Of a stretch of DNA of 64,000 nt, positions 13,987 through 40,900 are shown piece by piece. Made by a program: the position numbers and the translations under genes. How positions within the stretch are numbered: the first letter of the stretch is position 1; each line of letters begins with the position of its first letter. The stretch is from the NCBI GenBank assembly GCA_043770135.1, contig JAYVIN010000020.1:33929-97928 (forward strand), in the 5' to 3' direction. Under the pieces are notes generated by a model. The model ran no database searches. It had not been told where the DNA came from and saw only the letters and a program-made list of their open reading frames with translations. The stretch comes from Flavobacterium sp. GTDB lineage: Bacteria > Bacteroidota > Bacteroidia > Flavobacteriales > Flavobacteriaceae.

Positions 13987-14709
13987 TTATTTAGTACACA
14001 CTACTTGTTGAGTAAATCGGAGGTCTATTGTTTTATATTTATTTAACGAACTATCTAAAACCGCTTTTTGAAAAACTGCTTTATAATTATTGAATTTTGA
14101 TTTGATTTTAATTGGTCTTCCGAAATCAATTTGATAATTATAATTTCTGTTAAACAGTAATAAGCTTCCGTTAGGCATAATTTGAACACCAATGATGTTT
14201 TTTTTCAAAAACACATCGTCGTGGATTACGCGAAATAATTCGGCTAAATCTTTGTTGTTTTTTTTATTTATATTCCCTGAAACAAGCGGAACTCTAGCTG
14301 TAAAATTAGTTGACAATGGCATGGTATTTCCCTTATAATCAATATAAAAAGAATCATCGCCATCAAAAACTCTAGCTACAGGAGTTTTTTGTTTCACTAC
14401 TGCTTTTAGAACCCCATCAATACTTACAAACACATCCGATTTTTCAATCATTTCTTGTGTGTTCAAAGCCTTTTCTAACTTATTCAAATCTAATTTATCT
14501 TTATCGATACTTTGCGCATCCTTTTTATTTTCTATTAACAATTTATTAACCGTTTCCTGATCAACAAAAGGAGCGCTGTTTCCTACAAAAACTACTATTG
14601 CTTTCTTGAGTTTTCTATTGTTATTTCGATTTGAAGTAAACGAAAACAAGAAAACTACAAGAGCAAACATGAGTATTAACTTTATATTGGTCCAATTAAA
14701 GAGTTTCAT
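13987..14709 (-). CDS. ftsQ: Cell division protein FtsQ-like
   Basis: 240 aa with a single N-terminal TM helix then a POTRA-like domain. Located between murC and ftsA and overlaps the murC end by 14 nt. Confidence 0.75.
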   Translation of the reverse strand: MKLFNWTNIKLILMFALVVFLFSFTSNRNNNRKLKKAIVVFVGNSAPFVDQETVNKLLIENKKDAQSIDKDKLDLNKLEKALNTQEMIEKSDVFVSIDGVLKAVVKQKTPVARVFDGDDSFYIDYKGNTMPLSTNFTARVPLVSGNINKKNNKDLAELFRVIHDDVFLKKNIIGVQIMPNGSLLLFNRNYNYQIDFGRPIKIKSKFNNYKAVFQKAVLDSSLNKYKTIDLRFTQQVVCTK

Positions 14710-16045
14710 CCAAGGCTTTTTTAATTAAGGGTACTAATTCTCCAATATCTCCAGCTCCAATGGTAATAATGACTGTTGCTTCACTTTTTAGAATAGATGA
14801 AATTAACATTTCTTTTGGAAGTAATTTTTTATTACCATTCTTTACTTTATTTAATAACCATTGAGAGTTAACTCCTTCCATGGGCAATTCGCGAGCAGGA
14901 TAAATATCTAATAATATTAGTTCGTCAAAAAGAGCAAGACTTTTGGCAAAATCATCTGCAAAATCTTTGGTTCGGCTAAACAAATGTGGCTGAAAAATTG
15001 CTAGTACTTTTTTATCAGGATATAATTCTTTAACCGCTTGATGAACCGCATTAATTTCAGTTGGATGATGCGCATAATCATCGATGTAAACTAGCTTTTC
15101 GGTTTTAATTTGGTATGAAAATCTACGTTTTATCCCTTTAAATGAATACAAGGCACTGGCAATGTCTTCGTTTGGGAGACCGAAAGTTTTAGCCATTGCC
15201 AATGCCATTAAAGCATTCATCAAATTATGTTTACCGGGTAAACTAAATTTTATATTTGTAATAGTTTCAGAGGGTGTTTTTACATCAAAAACATATTCAC
15301 TACCTATAATTTTAATATTACACGCATTGAAAATTGCAGTATCATTTACTGCACAACTAACTCCCTGAAGGGGTAATTCTTTAGTTATAAAAAGTTGACT
15401 TTTGTCGGTTACTTTATTGGCAAATTCAACAAAAGACGCCTCGATAGAAGCACTGTCTCCGTAAATATCCAAATGGTCTGCATCCATTGAAGTAACACAG
15501 GCAATATTGGGATGCAAATGCAAGAAAGATCGATCAAACTCATCCGCTTCGACCACCGTTACTGTTTTTCCGTTTCCTATCAAATTGGAATTGTAATTCT
15601 CTACTATTCCGCCAACAAATGCAGTAACATCTACGCCACATTGGTATAATATATGACCTAAAATACCCGATGTAGTTGTTTTGCCATGGGTACCGGCTAC
15701 GGCAAAACAAAAAGTATCTTTTGTGATTATACCTAAAACTTCGGCTCTCTTTTTTACTTCATAATTATTTTCTAAAAAATAATTCCATTGTAGATGCTGT
15801 TTTGGAACTGCTGGAGTAATGATTACTAGAGTATCTTTGGGCAAATAACTTAACGGAATTAAATTAATTCTATCGTCAAAATGGATAGCAATTCCAAGTT
15901 CTTGTAATTCTTTGGTTAATTCGGTTGCTGTTTTGTCATAACCAGACACATTTTTACCAATAGACTTAAAATAGCGAGCTAGAGCACTCATTCCAATTCC
16001 TCCGATACCTATAAAATAGACGTTATGTATTTGAGATAGATTCAT
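14696..16045 (-). CDS. murC: UDP-N-acetylmuramate--L-alanine ligase
   Basis: GIGGIGMSALA Rossmann N-terminus and GTHGKTTT P-loop, with the Mur ligase middle and C domains. Confidence 0.95.
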   Translation of the reverse strand: MNLSQIHNVYFIGIGGIGMSALARYFKSIGKNVSGYDKTATELTKELQELGIAIHFDDRINLIPLSYLPKDTLVIITPAVPKQHLQWNYFLENNYEVKKRAEVLGIITKDTFCFAVAGTHGKTTTSGILGHILYQCGVDVTAFVGGIVENYNSNLIGNGKTVTVVEADEFDRSFLHLHPNIACVTSMDADHLDIYGDSASIEASFVEFANKVTDKSQLFITKELPLQGVSCAVNDTAIFNACNIKIIGSEYVFDVKTPSETITNIKFSLPGKHNLMNALMALAMAKTFGLPNEDIASALYSFKGIKRRFSYQIKTEKLVYIDDYAHHPTEINAVHQAVKELYPDKKVLAIFQPHLFSRTKDFADDFAKSLALFDELILLDIYPARELPMEGVNSQWLLNKVKNGNKKLLPKEMLISSILKSEATVIITIGAGDIGELVPLIKKALDETL

Positions 16046-16053
16046 TTTTATTT

Positions 16054-16090
16054 CCTCACCCCCAACCCCTCTCCTAAGGAGAGGGGAGCC
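16054..16090 (-). repeat. GC-rich hairpin plus G-tract mini-element, copy a (murG-murC spacer)
   Basis: The plus strand reads CCTCACCCCCAACCC-CTCTCC-TAA-GGAGAG-GGGAGCC. A 9-10 bp GC hairpin at 16066-16086 adjoins a C-tract. Strongly GC-rich against an AT-rich background. Confidence 0.8.
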
Positions 16091-16137
16091 GAAACTGGAA
16101 AAGGGTATTTTTAAATTAGTACTATTTATTTTTACTG

Positions 16138-16169
16138 CTTTACAATCCCGAAATTTCGGGATTGTAAAG
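16138..16169. repeat. Perfect 32-bp palindrome in the murG-murC spacer
   Basis: CTTTACAATCCCGAAA|TTTCGGGATTGTAAAG with 16+16 nt and no mismatch. It starts 4 nt after the murG stop. Confidence 0.9.
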
Positions 16170-16172
16170 GGT

Positions 16173-17351
16173 TTATATCAATTTCACGATTTCGTCAACA
16201 ATTTTTTTTGTAGCGTTTGGCAAAGCCAATTGCTTTATATTTTCACTTAGTTGATTTTGTTTGCCTTGATCTTTGAGCAAGGCTTCAAAAACTAGACTGA
16301 ATTGGGAGTCTAATTCAGATTCTTTTAGCATTAATGCTCCTTTTTTATCTACTATTGATTTTGCATTTTTAGTTTGATGATCTTCGGCAACATTAGGTGA
16401 TGGAATAAAAATAACAGGTTTACCCACGATACATAATTCTGAAACGGAGGAAGCTCCAGCTCTCGAAATCACAATATCAGCCGCGGCATATACCAAATCC
16501 ATTCTATCAATAAATGCCAAGACTTGGACATTTTTAATTCTATTTCCGTTGCTAGTTCCCCCTTCGGGGGCTAGGGGGCTATTATATTTCTTGTAATCTT
16601 CAAAATATAATTTTCCGCATTGCCAGATAATCTGTATACCTAAAGAAACCATATTTTCCAATTCTTTTTCTATAAGTTGATTTACTCTTCTGGCGCCAAG
16701 ACTTCCACCAAGAACCAATACTGTTTTTTTATTGGCGTCTAAATTAAAGTAGCGAATTGCTTCTGCTCTTTTGCCATCAATATCAATCAAATCTTGACGT
16801 ACAGGATTGCCTGTCAAAATCATTTTCTCTTTCGGAAAGAATCGTTCCAAATTTTCGTAGGCTACACAAATGGTGTTTGCTTTTTTACTTAATAATTTAT
16901 TAGTTATTCCAGGGAAGGAGTTTTGTTCCTGAATTACCGTTGGGATACTTAGCATATTTGCCATTTGTAACAAAGGTCCAGAGGCAAAACCTCCAGTTCC
17001 AATGACTACATCTGGCTTAAACTGTTTGATAATTTTTCTGGATTTCCATAAACTGCAGATTAATTTTATTGGAAACAATGCGTTTTGTAAAGTCAATTTA
17101 CGTTGCAAACCCGCAATCCACAACCCTTTTATTTCATATCCTGCTTGCGGTACTTTTTGCATTTCCATTTTGTCTTTGGCACCTACAAAAAGAAATTTTG
17201 CATCAGGAAAACGAGACTTTAATTCATTGGCAATAGCAACTGCGGGATAAATATGTCCTCCAGTTCCGCCACCACTTAATATGAAAGCCCAACCCTGACC
17301 CTTCCCAAACGGAAGGGAGCTAGGATTGTTTATTTGTTTTGTTTTATCCAT
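16173..17351 (-). CDS. murG: Undecaprenyldiphospho-muramoylpentapeptide beta-N-acetylglucosaminyltransferase
   Basis: [14 protein letters not shown] Gly-loop, GT28 N and C domains, and DHQTKNA near the C-terminus. It carries two GC-rich in-frame segments (see repeats at 16551 and 17287). Confidence 0.93.
16551..16580 (+). repeat. GC-rich mini-element, copy b, in frame inside murG
   Basis: GCTAGTT-CCCCC-TTC-GGGGG-CTAGGGGGCT. It is translated on the minus strand as PLAPEGGTS within [23 protein letters not shown]. Confidence 0.75.
17287..17323 (-). repeat. GC-rich mini-element, copy c, encoding the murG N-terminal extension
   Basis: GCCCAACCCTGA-CCCTTCC-CAAAC-GGAAGGG-AGCTAG with the hairpin at 17299-17317. 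It encodes [12 protein letters not shown] immediately before the ILSGGGTGG motif. Confidence 0.75.
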
Positions 17352-17373
17352 TTCTAATTTATTTTCATTTTTT

Positions 17374-18729
17374 TTAATTAGAAATTTTCATTCCTTTAAT
17401 AGCTGTCATCGGATTATCCGCTTTGTCTTCGATGGAGTAATTTTTATTGTTTTCTTCTATTTTTTCTTGAAAAGCCTTCCCTTCGGGAGGGTTGGGTTGG
17501 CTATCTTCCTCTTCCAACTGTTTATCAATTAGTTTTTGGAGCGCCGAATCTCTTCGAGCCTTATCCTTAACTTCCTCGGCTATTTCTTCTTCTTTTTTGG
17601 TCACATTTATAATAATTCCCAAGGCAATACAAGTCATCCATATCGAACTTCCACCACTACTTATAAGTGGAAGTGTTTGCCCAGTTACAGGCAACAATTC
17701 TACTGCCACCGCCATATTGACCATAGCTTGAAATATCATCGGAAATCCTAGTCCCACAATTAATAATTTTCCAAATAGAGTAGTGGCTTTATGTGCAGCT
17801 ACTATAAATCTGAAAAACAATAATAGATATAGAAATAACACGCCAAAACCACCAATTAGCCCCCATTCTTCAACAATAATAGCGTAGATAAAATCGGAGG
17901 AAGATTGTGGCAAAAAGTTTTTTTGAATGCTCTTTCCAGGACCTAATCCATATATTCCGCCAGAAGCAATGGCAATTTTTGCTTTTTCGATTTGGTAATC
18001 GTCCTCACCAGGTTTGTTAGTTGTAAAATTCTCAACTCTACTAGACCAAGTGTCAACTCTACTAAAAAAATGAGAATCAGGAAAAGCTTTAGCCAATAAC
18101 ACAAATAAAACTAATGCAGCTATTCCCGAACCTACAATAAAACCAATGTATTTCAATGGATAATTACCCACGAATGTCAACATTAAAACCATCGAAAATA
18201 TTAAGGCTGCGGTAGAAAAATTGGCGGGTAAAATAAATAGTAATGTGCCAAAAACGGGTGCCCAAAGTTGCAAAAGAGATTCTTGAAAAGTATGCTCAAT
18301 TTCTCTTTTTTTGGACAAGTACCGTGCCACATAAAGCATTAAAACTATTGATGCCAATGTCGAAGTTTGAAATGTAATTCCAATAAAAGGGACCTGAATC
18401 CATCTGCTTGCATTTGCTCCCGCAATGACTGTTCCTTTTACCAAAGTATATCCTAATAATATCCAAACTATCGGCAATGCTATTTTAGAAATTCCTTTAT
18501 AATAATGATAAGGTACTTTGTGAACCCAATAAATAATAACAAATCCAATAAAAACATGAGCTAAATGCTTTAGTAAATATCCAATTGTATTCCCAGTTCC
18601 GTGATTGGAATAGGCTAAATTACTACTTGCACTAAAAACAGGCATAAACGAAAACAAGGCTAATAAAGCCACGAATGACCATATTACTTTATCCCCTTTT
18701 AGACTGTTTATTAGTTCTTTCATTTTCAA
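17374..18729 (-). CDS. ftsW: Peptidoglycan glycosyltransferase FtsW (SEDS family)
   Basis: About 10 TM segments and the [10 protein letters not shown] motif. Located between murD and murG. A charged C-terminal tail of about 70 aa contains GC-rich element copy d. Confidence 0.9.
17474..17501 (+). repeat. GC-rich mini-element, copy d, in frame in the ftsW C-terminal tail
   Basis: GCCTTCCC-TTC-GGGAGG-GTTGGGTTGGC. It is translated on the minus strand as [12 protein letters not shown] and is inverted relative to copy c, 150 bp away. Confidence 0.7.
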
Positions 18730-37296: not shown

Positions 37297-37329
37297 CTTC
37301 CTTTCCTTTGGATTGGGTTGGGGTGAGGA
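37297..37329 (+). repeat. GC-rich mini-element, copy e (abuts the adhesin stop codon)
   Basis: CTTCCTTTCCTTTGGATTGGGTTGGGGTGAGGA. Its G-tract GGGTTGGGGTGAGG is the reverse complement of the copy-a C-tract. Confidence 0.75.
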
Positions 37330-40327: not shown

Positions 40328-40900
40328 TTATTTTGTGCCAAACTCCCTTCCCATTGGGGAGGGCTGGGGAGGGGCTGTCATTTTTTTAAACAAATCCCAA
40401 ACTACAATTCCAGCACTGACAGCAATATTCAAGGAATGTTTAGTCCCCAATTGCGGAATTTCGATACAACCATCACAAATGGCAATGGCTTCTTGCGAAA
40501 CACCATACACTTCATTTCCAAAAACTAGTGCATATTTTGTGTCTTTTTCAACTTCAAAATCTTGAAGGAAAACCGCGCTTTCTACTTGTTCTATCGCAAG
40601 AACTAATGTGCCTTCGTTTTTTAGATTCTCAATAACTTCTAGCACATTGTCATGGTGTTCCCATGTCACGGTTTCAGTTGCGCCAAGAGCTGTTTTGTGA
40701 ATTTCTTTATTGGGAGGTGTGGCTGTAATGCCACACAAATATATTTTTTCGACTAAAAAAGCATCGGCTGTTCTAAAAACAGAGCCAATATTGTGTAAAC
40801 TCCTGATGTCGTCCAATATTAATATTAAAGGTGTCTTTTCGGATTTTTTAAAGTCAGTAATAGATTTTCTATCGAGTTCGCTATTTTCTAATTTTCGCAT
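40328..40900 (-). CDS. TrmH/SpoU-family RNA 2'-O-methyltransferase
   Basis: SpoU motifs LHNIGSVFRTADA, ALVFGNEVYGVS and IPQLGTKHSLNIAVSAGIV. The last ~17 codons (TAPPQPSPMGREFGTK) are encoded by GC-rich element copy f. Confidence 0.85.
   Translation of the reverse strand: MRKLENSELDRKSITDFKKSEKTPLILILDDIRSLHNIGSVFRTADAFLVEKIYLCGITATPPNKEIHKTALGATETVTWEHHDNVLEVIENLKNEGTLVLAIEQVESAVFLQDFEVEKDTKYALVFGNEVYGVSQEAIAICDGCIEIPQLGTKHSLNIAVSAGIVVWDLFKKMTAPPQPSPMGREFGTK
40343..40375 (+). repeat. GC-rich mini-element, copy f (3' end of the TrmH-like ORF, 86 bp upstream of the adhesin start)
   Basis: CTCCCTTCCCATTGGGGAGGGCTGGGGAGGGGC. By hand count, 23 of 33 positions match copy e in an ungapped alignment, in the same orientation. 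Confidence 0.75.

Follow-up and report, generated by a model that had tools for sequence, protein, structure and literature searches.

What are the short GC-rich patches that interrupt an otherwise AT-rich stretch of Flavobacterium DNA, and how did they come to lie in and between the murG, ftsW and murC genes of its dcw (division and cell wall) cluster? The stretch analysed, referred to here as the window, is 64 kb long with a G+C content of 30-41%, and a preliminary description had listed in it six copies of one architecture, a GC hairpin followed by a G-tract. All six patches were found where that description had placed them. Copies 1-4 and 6 are genuine patches that share the architecture, whereas copy 5 has no hairpin and is too decayed to confirm. 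The hairpins are present as described, but the G-tract is not an arbitrary run: its sequence is the mirror image of the purine arm in the preceding hairpin. Judged by this geometry, the patches correspond to a predicted intramolecular purine-motif triplex (G.G-C, T.A-T and A.A-T triads), and by their recurrence they are members of a Bacteroidota-wide family of 21-33 nt repeats rather than chance GC. The structural class is known; the phylum, a minimal form, the frequent in-frame insertion and a candidate nuclease partner are new.

When the window was searched strictly, for a perfect C/T-arm hairpin with two G-runs behind it, 5 sites emerged, whereas 300 dinucleotide-preserving shuffles gave an expectation of 0.26 (shuffle maximum, 4). 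A three-arm search under looser limits (stems of 6 or more, no more than 2 defects) recovered copies 1, 3, 4 and 6 together with their opposite-strand shadows, compared with 0.3 in shuffles. Bare G-run pairs showed no enrichment (15 in the window, where 17 were expected), which indicates that the combination of hairpin and G-run is the unusual part. Four of the six copies fall inside 1.5 kb of the 64 kb, an arrangement with a chance of about 1e-3 by a rough estimate, and motifs cluster likewise at other loci (e.g., L113, L149 and L196; L and P designate loci and proteins of the comparison).

Anatomy and structural class of the repeats

Each unit is laid out on one strand as a pyrimidine arm (Y), a loop, a purine arm (R), a linker of 2-3 nt and a third arm (H) that mirrors R, each G facing a G and each A facing a T or an A. 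The loops of the window copies measure 3-5 nt between Y and R and 2-3 nt between R and H, and the usual linkers, in the window and elsewhere, are YTG, YTA, TCG or CAG. Copy 1 (16054-16086, minus strand) consists of Y CCCCTCTCC (16086-16078), the loop TTA, R GGAGAGGGG (16074-16066), the linker TTG and H GGGGTGAGG (16062-16054), with 9/9 triads; it lies in the sense orientation, 9 nt 5' of the murC ATG, and its DNA hairpin is predicted at -9.9 kcal/mol (z -2.8). Copy 2 (16558-16578, plus strand), the minimal or A-type form, reads CCCCC-TTC-GGGGG-CTA-GGGGG with 5/5 triads and is antisense to murG, where it is translated as SPLAPEGG. Copy 3 (17289-17317, minus strand; CCCTTCC-GTTTG-GGAAGGG-TCA-GGGTTGG, 7/7 triads, DNA hairpin -7.8 kcal/mol) is in the sense orientation and occupies murG codons ~12-21, immediately ahead of a loop. 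Copy 4 (17475-17500, plus strand; CCTTCCC-TTC-GGGAGGG-TT-GGGTTGG), antisense within the ftsW tail, is decayed, with two defects and a mirror of 6/7, while its L002 ortholog is intact at 7/7 (CCCTCCC-TTC-GGGAGGG-TT-GGGTGGG). Copy 6 (40345-40374, plus strand; CCCTTCCC-ATT-GGGGAGGG-CTG-GGGAGGGG) shows 8/8 Hoogsteen and 7/8 Watson-Crick matches plus one T.G, and is read antisense and in frame in the C-terminal tail of a SpoU methylase (APPQPSPMGREFG). Copy 5 (37297-37329, plus strand; ...TTGGGTTGGGGTGAGG), between convergent genes, is a degenerate G-rich remnant whose third-arm-like end resembles that of copy 1; no hairpin could be recovered (DNA fold -1.1 kcal/mol, z +0.57), and its membership of the family is uncertain.

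The mirror relationship extends well beyond the window. The 46 motifs whose stems number 6 or more (43 of them outside the window, in ~2.3 Mb of related DNA) are diverse in stem sequence, and the mirror third arm is present in each. In a set of 90 hairpins that pair a pyrimidine arm with an asymmetric purine arm, 27 had a perfect mirror arm 3' of the hairpin and none had one 5' of it, the control position. Direct-repeat matches numbered 8, of which 7 were ambiguous near-symmetric arms, so that mirror outnumbered direct repeat by 20 to 1 where the two could be distinguished. The three segments thus covary while the sequence varies freely, which points to a structural constraint. The consensus proposed earlier, GCTYCCYYTYCC-loop-GGRRRGGG-YTGGGG, does not describe the family as a sequence; the conserved feature is the complementarity of the three arms. 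ViennaRNA predicts the hairpin alone for these motifs, and alternative folds, namely a Y-H hairpin or, in some copies, a G-quadruplex, are possible.

Elements with this order of arms are known from Escherichia coli, where they received the name BoxC in the 1990s (Bachellier) and that of potential intrastrand triplex (PIT) elements from Hoyne and Maher in 2000, both as relayed by PMC4666352. Holder et al. (2015) treated them as TMECO, or class II intrastrand triplex motifs, with the consensus CCCTCNCCC-N3-6-GGGNGAGGG-N3-GGGNGAGGG (PMC4666352). According to that study, TMECO are "always intergenic" in E. coli, lack both promoter and terminator activity, are surrounded by raised local variability, and were never found near transposase, integrase or other mobility genes, while cyanobacteria are rich in class II motifs; its main text mentions neither Bacteroidetes nor coding insertions (PMC4666352). 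Because RNA does not form purine-motif triplexes (PMC4666352), the structure, if real, would belong to single-stranded DNA.

The block order of pyrimidine arm, purine arm and reverse-Hoogsteen arm is present in copies 1, 2, 3, 4 and 6 and absent from copy 5. Under the ITxF definition of class II (6-15 triads, at most one mismatch, loops of 1-6 nt; PMC4666352), copies 1, 3 and 6 reach the stem threshold, copy 2 has 5 triads and copy 4 has two defects. None of the window copies matches the BoxC/TMECO consensus sequence, and four lie in open reading frames (ORFs) rather than between genes. By their arms, the window copies would thus be assigned to the structural class and not to the enterobacterial BoxC sequence family. 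Likeness to BoxC/PIT/TMECO consists in the same arm order (a loop of 3-6 nt, then ~3 nt), a GC-rich composition, dispersal, occurrence singly or as inverted ("palindromic") pairs, differences among close strains, abundance in some phyla (such as cyanobacteria) and the lack of a transposase found close by. The present family departs from them in its stems of 5-9 nt rather than 9, with a commonest type of 5 triads that falls under the ITxF minimum of 6, in its Bacteroidota hosts, in having a third of its copies in frame within genes, and in flanking DUF559 genes.

Orthologs of the patch-bearing genes

Pfam searches identified murC (14696-16045, 449 residues, free of any insert in the window), murG (16173-17351, 392 residues), ftsW (17374-18729, 451 residues) and murD, as well as a SpoU-family RNA methyltransferase gene (40328-40900, 190 residues), all on the minus strand. 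The in-frame placement of the two murG patches and the ftsW tail patch, as given in the preliminary description, was confirmed; it had counted three copies inside ORFs, and a fourth, copy 6 in the SpoU tail, had been overlooked.

Comparison with orthologs revealed how these patches arose. MurG has 361-363 residues in most of its 120 best homologs, against 392 in the window. The interior patch corresponds to an in-frame insertion of 42 nt, or 14 codons (16539-16580, minus strand), relative to L002 and L003 in DNA alignment, and includes an extra 18 nt on the Y-arm, or inner, side of copy 2. Among 84 related dcw loci, it occurs beyond the window only in L001, L005 and L006. In protein alignment, the interior patch is shared, with decayed variants, by a set of relatives that overlaps the set bearing the N-terminal patch. 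The second insertion in murG (17286-17351, minus strand; ~54-65 nt) supplies both the present ATG and copy 3, and the ancestral ATG region upstream (ATGAAAATAAATTAG) now reads into a stop. In the same 84 loci, it recurs only in L002, together with a variant of different stem in the more distant L082. Among MurG proteins, the N-terminal patch is confined to a few close relatives, one of which, P0083, carries another motif-like sequence, SSPSLREGAGGWA. The two murG inserts assort independently in close relatives.

The ftsW tail contains a 27-nt insertion that corresponds to copy 4 in DNA alignment. The murG-murC spacer (16046-16172, minus strand), which holds copy 1, is a lineage-specific segment of 127 nt; it can be regarded as an insertion because murG and murC overlap by 4 nt in L003, and in L001 the two genes are separated by an unrelated AT-rich spacer of 131 nt. 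SpoU orthologs comprise 176-181 residues and end in ...NWPK*, whereas the window protein reads on through copy 6 to 190 residues. A further ortholog, P0335, ends in ...KMKAPQPPKGE, which looks like a different triplex motif at the position of copy 6.

Taken together, the alignments place the two murG patches, the ftsW and SpoU tails and the spacer as lineage-specific insertions, absent from most Flavobacterium. The ortholog comparison suggested in the preliminary description thus returned clean insertions of 42, 54-65 and 27 nt. The two outcomes that it had named as contrary to its proposal, the same residues throughout the genus or a motif found nowhere else, were looked for and did not occur. 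Its proposal of a mobile mini-element tolerated in coding sequence is supported by these ortholog insertions, but the alternative that the inserts had been exapted finds no support. In an AlphaFold2 model of MurG (mean predicted local distance difference test, pLDDT, 69.7), residues 1-18 and 261-271 have pLDDT below 50, and residues 257-274 are coil; mutated motifs were seen in L001, L006 and copy 4 of the window. The low-confidence, apparently disordered sites and the decay in relatives suggest that the inserts are tolerated passengers.

The idea that copies 3 and 4, or likewise copies 1 and 2, mark the two ends of a single inserted unit was discarded, since the intervening DNA is orthologous host sequence. 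Neither the murG, ftsW and murC sites nor the ends of the DUF559 units described below yielded a convincing target-site duplication; a 10-nt AT-rich stretch at the interior murG site, which might be read as a repeat, was not persuasive.

Several other features were observed in this region. The murG interior loop after YKKYNS (~16535-16585) carries unrelated inserts elsewhere, including TNRQPTTNNQQPTTN-type repeats and DKLITDNSQL (loci L041, L050, L051, L054 and L055; proteins P0041, P0058, P0063 and P0088), and their presence in other lineages suggests a general insertion hotspot. The spacer contains a perfect 14-bp palindrome at 16139-16170 (CTTTACAATCCCGAAATTTCGGGATTGTAAAG; DNA fold -14.7 kcal/mol, z -8.4), which is terminator-like on the plus strand only, that is, antisense to the operon; it was rejected as a member of the family since no copy was present in 283 fetched loci. 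In L001, a 23S_rRNA_IVP (PF05635) gene lies between mraY and murD (L001:305-541) with inverted AT-rich TTAAAAAT repeats on both sides and has the look of a further small, mobile passenger in this cluster. A link between this gene and the motifs was rejected, as the window has no homolog and the gene is flanked by AT-rich repeats rather than motifs.

The repeat family and the DUF559 genes beside it

The preliminary description had also proposed a small repeat family, and this is borne out by the 21-mer of copy 2 (CCCCCTTCGGGGGYTAGGGGG), which has exact matches with unrelated flanks in at least 119 stretches of a collection of species-representative genomes. Nearly all of the matches listed are from Bacteroidota, including Flavobacterium, Lutibacter, Aequorivita, Leeuwenhoekiella, Cellulophaga, Gillisia, Prevotella, Sphingobacterium, Pedobacter, Cytophagales, Spirosoma, Paludibacter and others. 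In 132 distinct copies, the flanks were unrelated except for a 5' ARTT and a 3' CTT, which delimits an A-type unit of ~28 nt, and other stem variants frequently adjoin the A-type motif. Lineages have been colonised unevenly: motifs were nearly absent from ~1.08 Mb of Flavobacterium dcw loci, apart from the near relatives of the window, the murC gene of L050 and the murG gene of L082. The 21-mer also occurs, mostly between genes, in 67 viral contigs of IMG/VR (L217-L283), none of which contains a DUF559 gene, and such contigs are a possible vehicle for the spread of the motif between hosts. Each contig has up to four A-type motifs (e.g., L246, L219, L228 and L280), which are mostly co-oriented and set within CTAACCA/CTAACAA heptamer repeats.

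In the fetched loci, 233 motifs were distributed as 117 intergenic, 74 internal to long ORFs, 35 at gene heads and 7 in C-terminal tails, although some of the 74 internal motifs lie in a few very large Cytophagales ORFs lacking a Pfam check, a few of which may not be genes. The internal motifs are read almost exclusively as PPSGVRG (sense) or SPLTPEGG (antisense). Hosts confirmed by Pfam include MurC (L006), MetH (L183 and L141), LeuRS (L118), AspRS (L135) and a TonB-dependent receptor (L090). In gene tails the motifs run antisense in 13 of 14 cases, and at gene heads they run sense in 33 of 41, a pattern to which the window copies conform. The retained reading frames are free of stops and encode Pro/Gly/Ser-rich peptides. 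An in-frame A-type insertion, a 24-nt unit, is present in the murC genes of L006 and L050 and missing from their nearest relatives. Single sites carry differing motif variants in different lineages, as in the murG N-terminus (L082), murC (L006 and L050) and the SpoU tail (P0335), which suggests that permissive or targeted sites have been hit repeatedly. The motifs persist only at harmless spots, namely intergenic spacers, protein termini and a surface loop. We found no prior description of coding insertions in a literature search whose coverage left out most subscription journals.

Further arrangements of the motifs were observed. Single very long ORFs with 6-10 motifs occur in a Cytophagales metagenome-assembled genome (MAG; L113:1-4200) and in L149, L196, L140 and L143, where the motifs are strongly clustered and often form inverted pairs 40-60 nt apart (SPLTPEGG ... 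PPSGxxG). Inverted A-type pairs with a short spacer form a long, REPIN-like hairpin (REPINs being paired repetitive extragenic palindromic, or REP, elements) at L167:40-110, L154:1940-2010 and L185:1540-1630; the L167 pair has a T-run after the hairpin on each strand and looks like a bidirectional terminator. A composite of TCCTATTKACCCCTAATAGGA-RTT, an A-type motif and CTAAnATG recurs directly 5' of the start codons of differing genes (L086, e.g., 1690-1750; L093, L103, L110, L134, L150, L152, L153, L178, with two, and L182). The loop of its first hairpin, ACCCCTAA, is complementary to the third-arm sequence TTAGGGG, and a pseudoknot-like fold may be possible. Rfam covariance models gave nothing at or close to the gathering threshold at the motifs, and no relevant match in the window region or the composite leader loci; Flavo-1 small RNAs (RF01705), unrelated to the motifs, scored above the gathering threshold at L153:4969-5046 and L086:6354-6421.

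A candidate partner emerged from three in-frame cases in which the motif forms one end of a 130-170-residue insertion containing a DUF559/MTES_1575 domain (Vsr-like PD-(D/E)XK). These are the leuS gene of Cellulophaga baltica DSM 24729 (L118:2202-5651; LeuRS residues 336-438), metH of a Lutibacter MAG (L141:4282-7488; MetH residues 469-575) and the MetH of a Cytophagales MAG. In the first two of these, essential genes of a cultured strain and of a MAG, no sign of an intein or intron was noticed, so either the host enzyme tolerates ~150 extra residues or the insert is removed. Searching for homologs gave 1221 proteins, the majority of them free-standing ORFs 122-135 residues long, and several are labelled MetH by the Joint Genome Institute (JGI) because they are located inside metH. 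Seven further independent loci were identified: ilvB|ilvN, porA|porB, metH, argG|argC (once in each of two organisms, the motifs differing) and another two.

Triplex motifs were present near the DUF559 ORF (PF04480/PF18741) in all ten loci, and in nine of the ten they stood on both sides, inverted, with the third (Hoogsteen) arms outward. The two ends of L208 illustrate this arrangement, with AGCC-CCCCTCC-TGA-CCTCCCC-CGAG-GGGGAGG-AATA on the left and TATT-CCTCCCC-CTCG-GGGGAGG-CCA-GGTGGGG-GGCT on the right, after the ORF. Perfect motifs numbered 11 in 5.6 kb around the DUF559 ORFs, compared with 4 in the other 16 kb, and the orientation was concordant in 11/11. No target-site duplication was visible at the unit ends, including those of L208, L212 and L215, which were inspected. 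DUF559 units recur at the same sites, in the metH linker of L141, L149 and L211 (and in the hits labelled MetH by JGI) and at argG|argC in L212 and L215. No paper describing an association of motif and DUF559 was found, again with most subscription journals outside the coverage.

Origin of the repeats and their relation to known systems

These observations can be brought together in a single explanation, which we consider probable as a whole: the patches are triplex-class repeats that were inserted as passengers, have since been decaying, and come from, or are moved by, a DUF559 unit. The motifs arrived by insertion into the murC-murG-ftsW stretch and the SpoU gene and later decayed, and in the dcw operon they probably serve no purpose for the host. 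They may derive from, or be moved by, a selfish unit in which a DUF559 nuclease gene lies between two inverted motifs, and the solo copies in the window would then be one-ended remnants or miniature derivatives of that unit. A structured single-stranded end might be recognised by the nuclease or by repair machinery. The extra bases on the Y-arm side of the murG interior copy fit one end of a larger unit, and the adherence of the window copies to the tail-antisense and head-sense rule fits one-ended remnants. A more specific version is offered tentatively, as quite possible but still doubtful. In it, the triplex repeats are the structured terminal inverted repeats of an undescribed mobile unit whose sole gene is DUF559; the unit inserts without target duplication at recurrent sites in conserved genes or at operon junctions, may be read through in frame (LeuRS and MetH), and leaves behind solo ends of 21-33 nt (murG, ftsW, murC and SpoU). 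The DUF559 partnership is best regarded as a lead.

Several points weigh against this explanation. Triplex folding of the window copies is a prediction from their arms; copies 3 and 6 and the L002 version of copy 4 also match a G-quadruplex motif, and the single strand of the E. coli TMECO formed a triplex in vitro, by circular dichroism and nuclear magnetic resonance, with none detected in vivo (PMC4666352). The window contains no DUF559 gene, so mobilisation by DUF559 is something we infer, and only 3 of ~190 A-type copies in the fetched genome loci adjoin such a gene, which means that most copies are solo. The ten DUF559 loci represent one subfamily, picked by homology to one insert, and a role of DUF559 in cleavage, excision or insertion is putative. 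Neither a target-site duplication nor an empty/filled pair was found for the complete DUF559 unit. The explanation also leaves the clustering of four copies within 1.5 kb at the dcw cluster unexplained.

A functional role in the host, with selection keeping dcw elements that act in the mRNA or the DNA (for example, as hairpins for processing or stabilisation, as modulators of translation ahead of murC and at the start of murG, as G-quadruplex switches or as sites of replication pausing), might be expected from the position of copy 1, which ends 9 nt before the murC ATG, and of copy 3, within the first 20 murG codons. The A-type motif with its upstream hairpin directly ahead of start codons in 11 other loci, the clustering of four copies with stable hairpins in one operon, and the G3+N1-7 G-quadruplex pattern of some copies point the same way. 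Nevertheless, all motifs are missing from most Flavobacterium dcw clusters, their presence differs among near relatives, and copies decay; coding copies occur in both orientations, so the mRNA carries either strand. Rfam gave no match, no T-run follows the hairpins in the sense direction, and the E. coli members have neither promoter nor terminator activity (PMC4666352). An intrinsic terminator role was rejected, as only copy 2 was flagged, on the murG-antisense strand and via alternative pairing, and promoter and terminator scans were unsupportive. We regard host function as rather unlikely. The possibility that the motifs are not mobile at all, but arose de novo at fragile sites through template switching or error-prone repair at hairpins and resemble one another by convergence, would agree with the lack of transposases near the E. 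coli members (PMC4666352), the absence of visible target-site duplications, the unusual divergence of motif-adjacent sequence and the repeated use of the same sites. It is hard to reconcile with a 28-nt unit that is identical in more than 130 unrelated contexts across Bacteroidota orders and viral contigs, with mirror repeats, which are not a product of ordinary polymerase copying, and with inverted motif pairs around DUF559 genes, and we judge it unlikely.

The preliminary description had called the patches REP/MITE-like, that is, akin to REPs or REPINs moved by RAYT (REP-associated tyrosine transposase, an IS200/IS605-like Y1 transposase) or to MITEs (miniature transposable elements with inverted repeats) moved by a DDE transposase. 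Their size of 20-40 nt, their GC hairpin, the inverted doublets with short spacers in L154, L167 and L185, which are REPIN-like (PMC3116915), and an associated gene flanked by repeats, as the RAYT gene is, all speak for that class. However, the flanked gene is DUF559 and not a Y1 transposase (no RAYT-directed search was made in the window or the loci), and REPs lie outside genes, while one in three of the present copies is read in frame within a gene. The unit has neither terminal inverted repeats of its own, its ends being ARTT and CTT, nor target-site duplications, and the conserved mirror third arm is foreign to REPs. The class therefore appears to be the wrong one, and we rate this origin as very unlikely. 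Chance GC-rich patches in an AT-rich genome would account for bare G-run pairs that are not enriched, and copy 5 alone could be chance, but for copies 1-4 and 6 this idea is refuted by the shuffle controls, the exact recurrence of the 21-mer and the mirror arm with its upstream control of 0; its probability is practically negligible.

If the proposed explanation holds, a sequence oddity would be assigned to a defined structural class, and that class would be extended to Bacteroidota and gain a minimal 5-triad form that the thresholds of earlier searches exclude. In-frame passengers would be common in essential proteins (MurG, FtsW, MurC, MetH, LeuRS and AspRS), in contrast to the strictly intergenic elements of E. 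coli, and a phenomenon like the palindromic elements of Rickettsia would exist in a large free-living phylum, adding short Pro/Gly-rich loops to proteins. The spread of intrastrand-triplex repeats (the BoxC/PIT class), unexplained since the 1990s, would gain in DUF559 its first candidate machinery that is concrete and can be tested, and a very large uncharacterised family of "endonuclease domain-containing" proteins would acquire a possible function. The inserts also confuse gene calling: contig L211 has its metH broken into pieces, and the annotation MetH is attached to several DUF559 inserts.

Among known systems, the Rickettsia palindromic elements (RPEs), reportedly described by Ogata et al. 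in 2000 as selfish sequences in frame within conserved coding genes, offer a close parallel. RPEs occupy surface-exposed positions with protein function preserved, are 100-150 bp long and AT-rich, and are confined to Rickettsia. They share with the present motifs the in-frame placement of palindromic repeats at tolerated sites of conserved genes, but are not known to have a mirror third arm or an associated gene, and they show no sequence similarity to the window motifs. The small dispersed repeats (SDRs) of Nostocales, said to have been described by Elhai et al. in 2008, are reportedly ~21-27 nt long, mobile-looking and often nested within other repeats. The A-type motif within viral heptamer repeats of the CTAACCA type is much like SDRs situated in heptamer repeats, although phylum and sequences differ, and we know of no report of a three-arm design for SDRs.

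The REP/REPIN-RAYT system (PMC3116915) resembles the present family in its short GC hairpins, its functional inverted doublets and a single small flanked gene thought to move them, but that gene encodes a Y1 transposase rather than a Vsr-like DUF559 protein, and REPs are extragenic and lack the third arm. VSR, DUF559 and group I intron endonucleases have been grouped together on the basis of a Vsr-like fold (PMC3424549). Homing endonuclease genes, whether free-standing or borne by an intron or intein and including the Vsr-like EDxHD family and I-Bth0305I (PMC3239194, PMC2677866), differ in that the DUF559 unit has no surrounding intron or intein, is read through in frame and bears structured terminal inverted repeats. 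Both recur at conserved sites and show no target-site duplication, and by this site recurrence the DUF559 unit, with its putative cleavage activity, may be likened to homing endonuclease genes.

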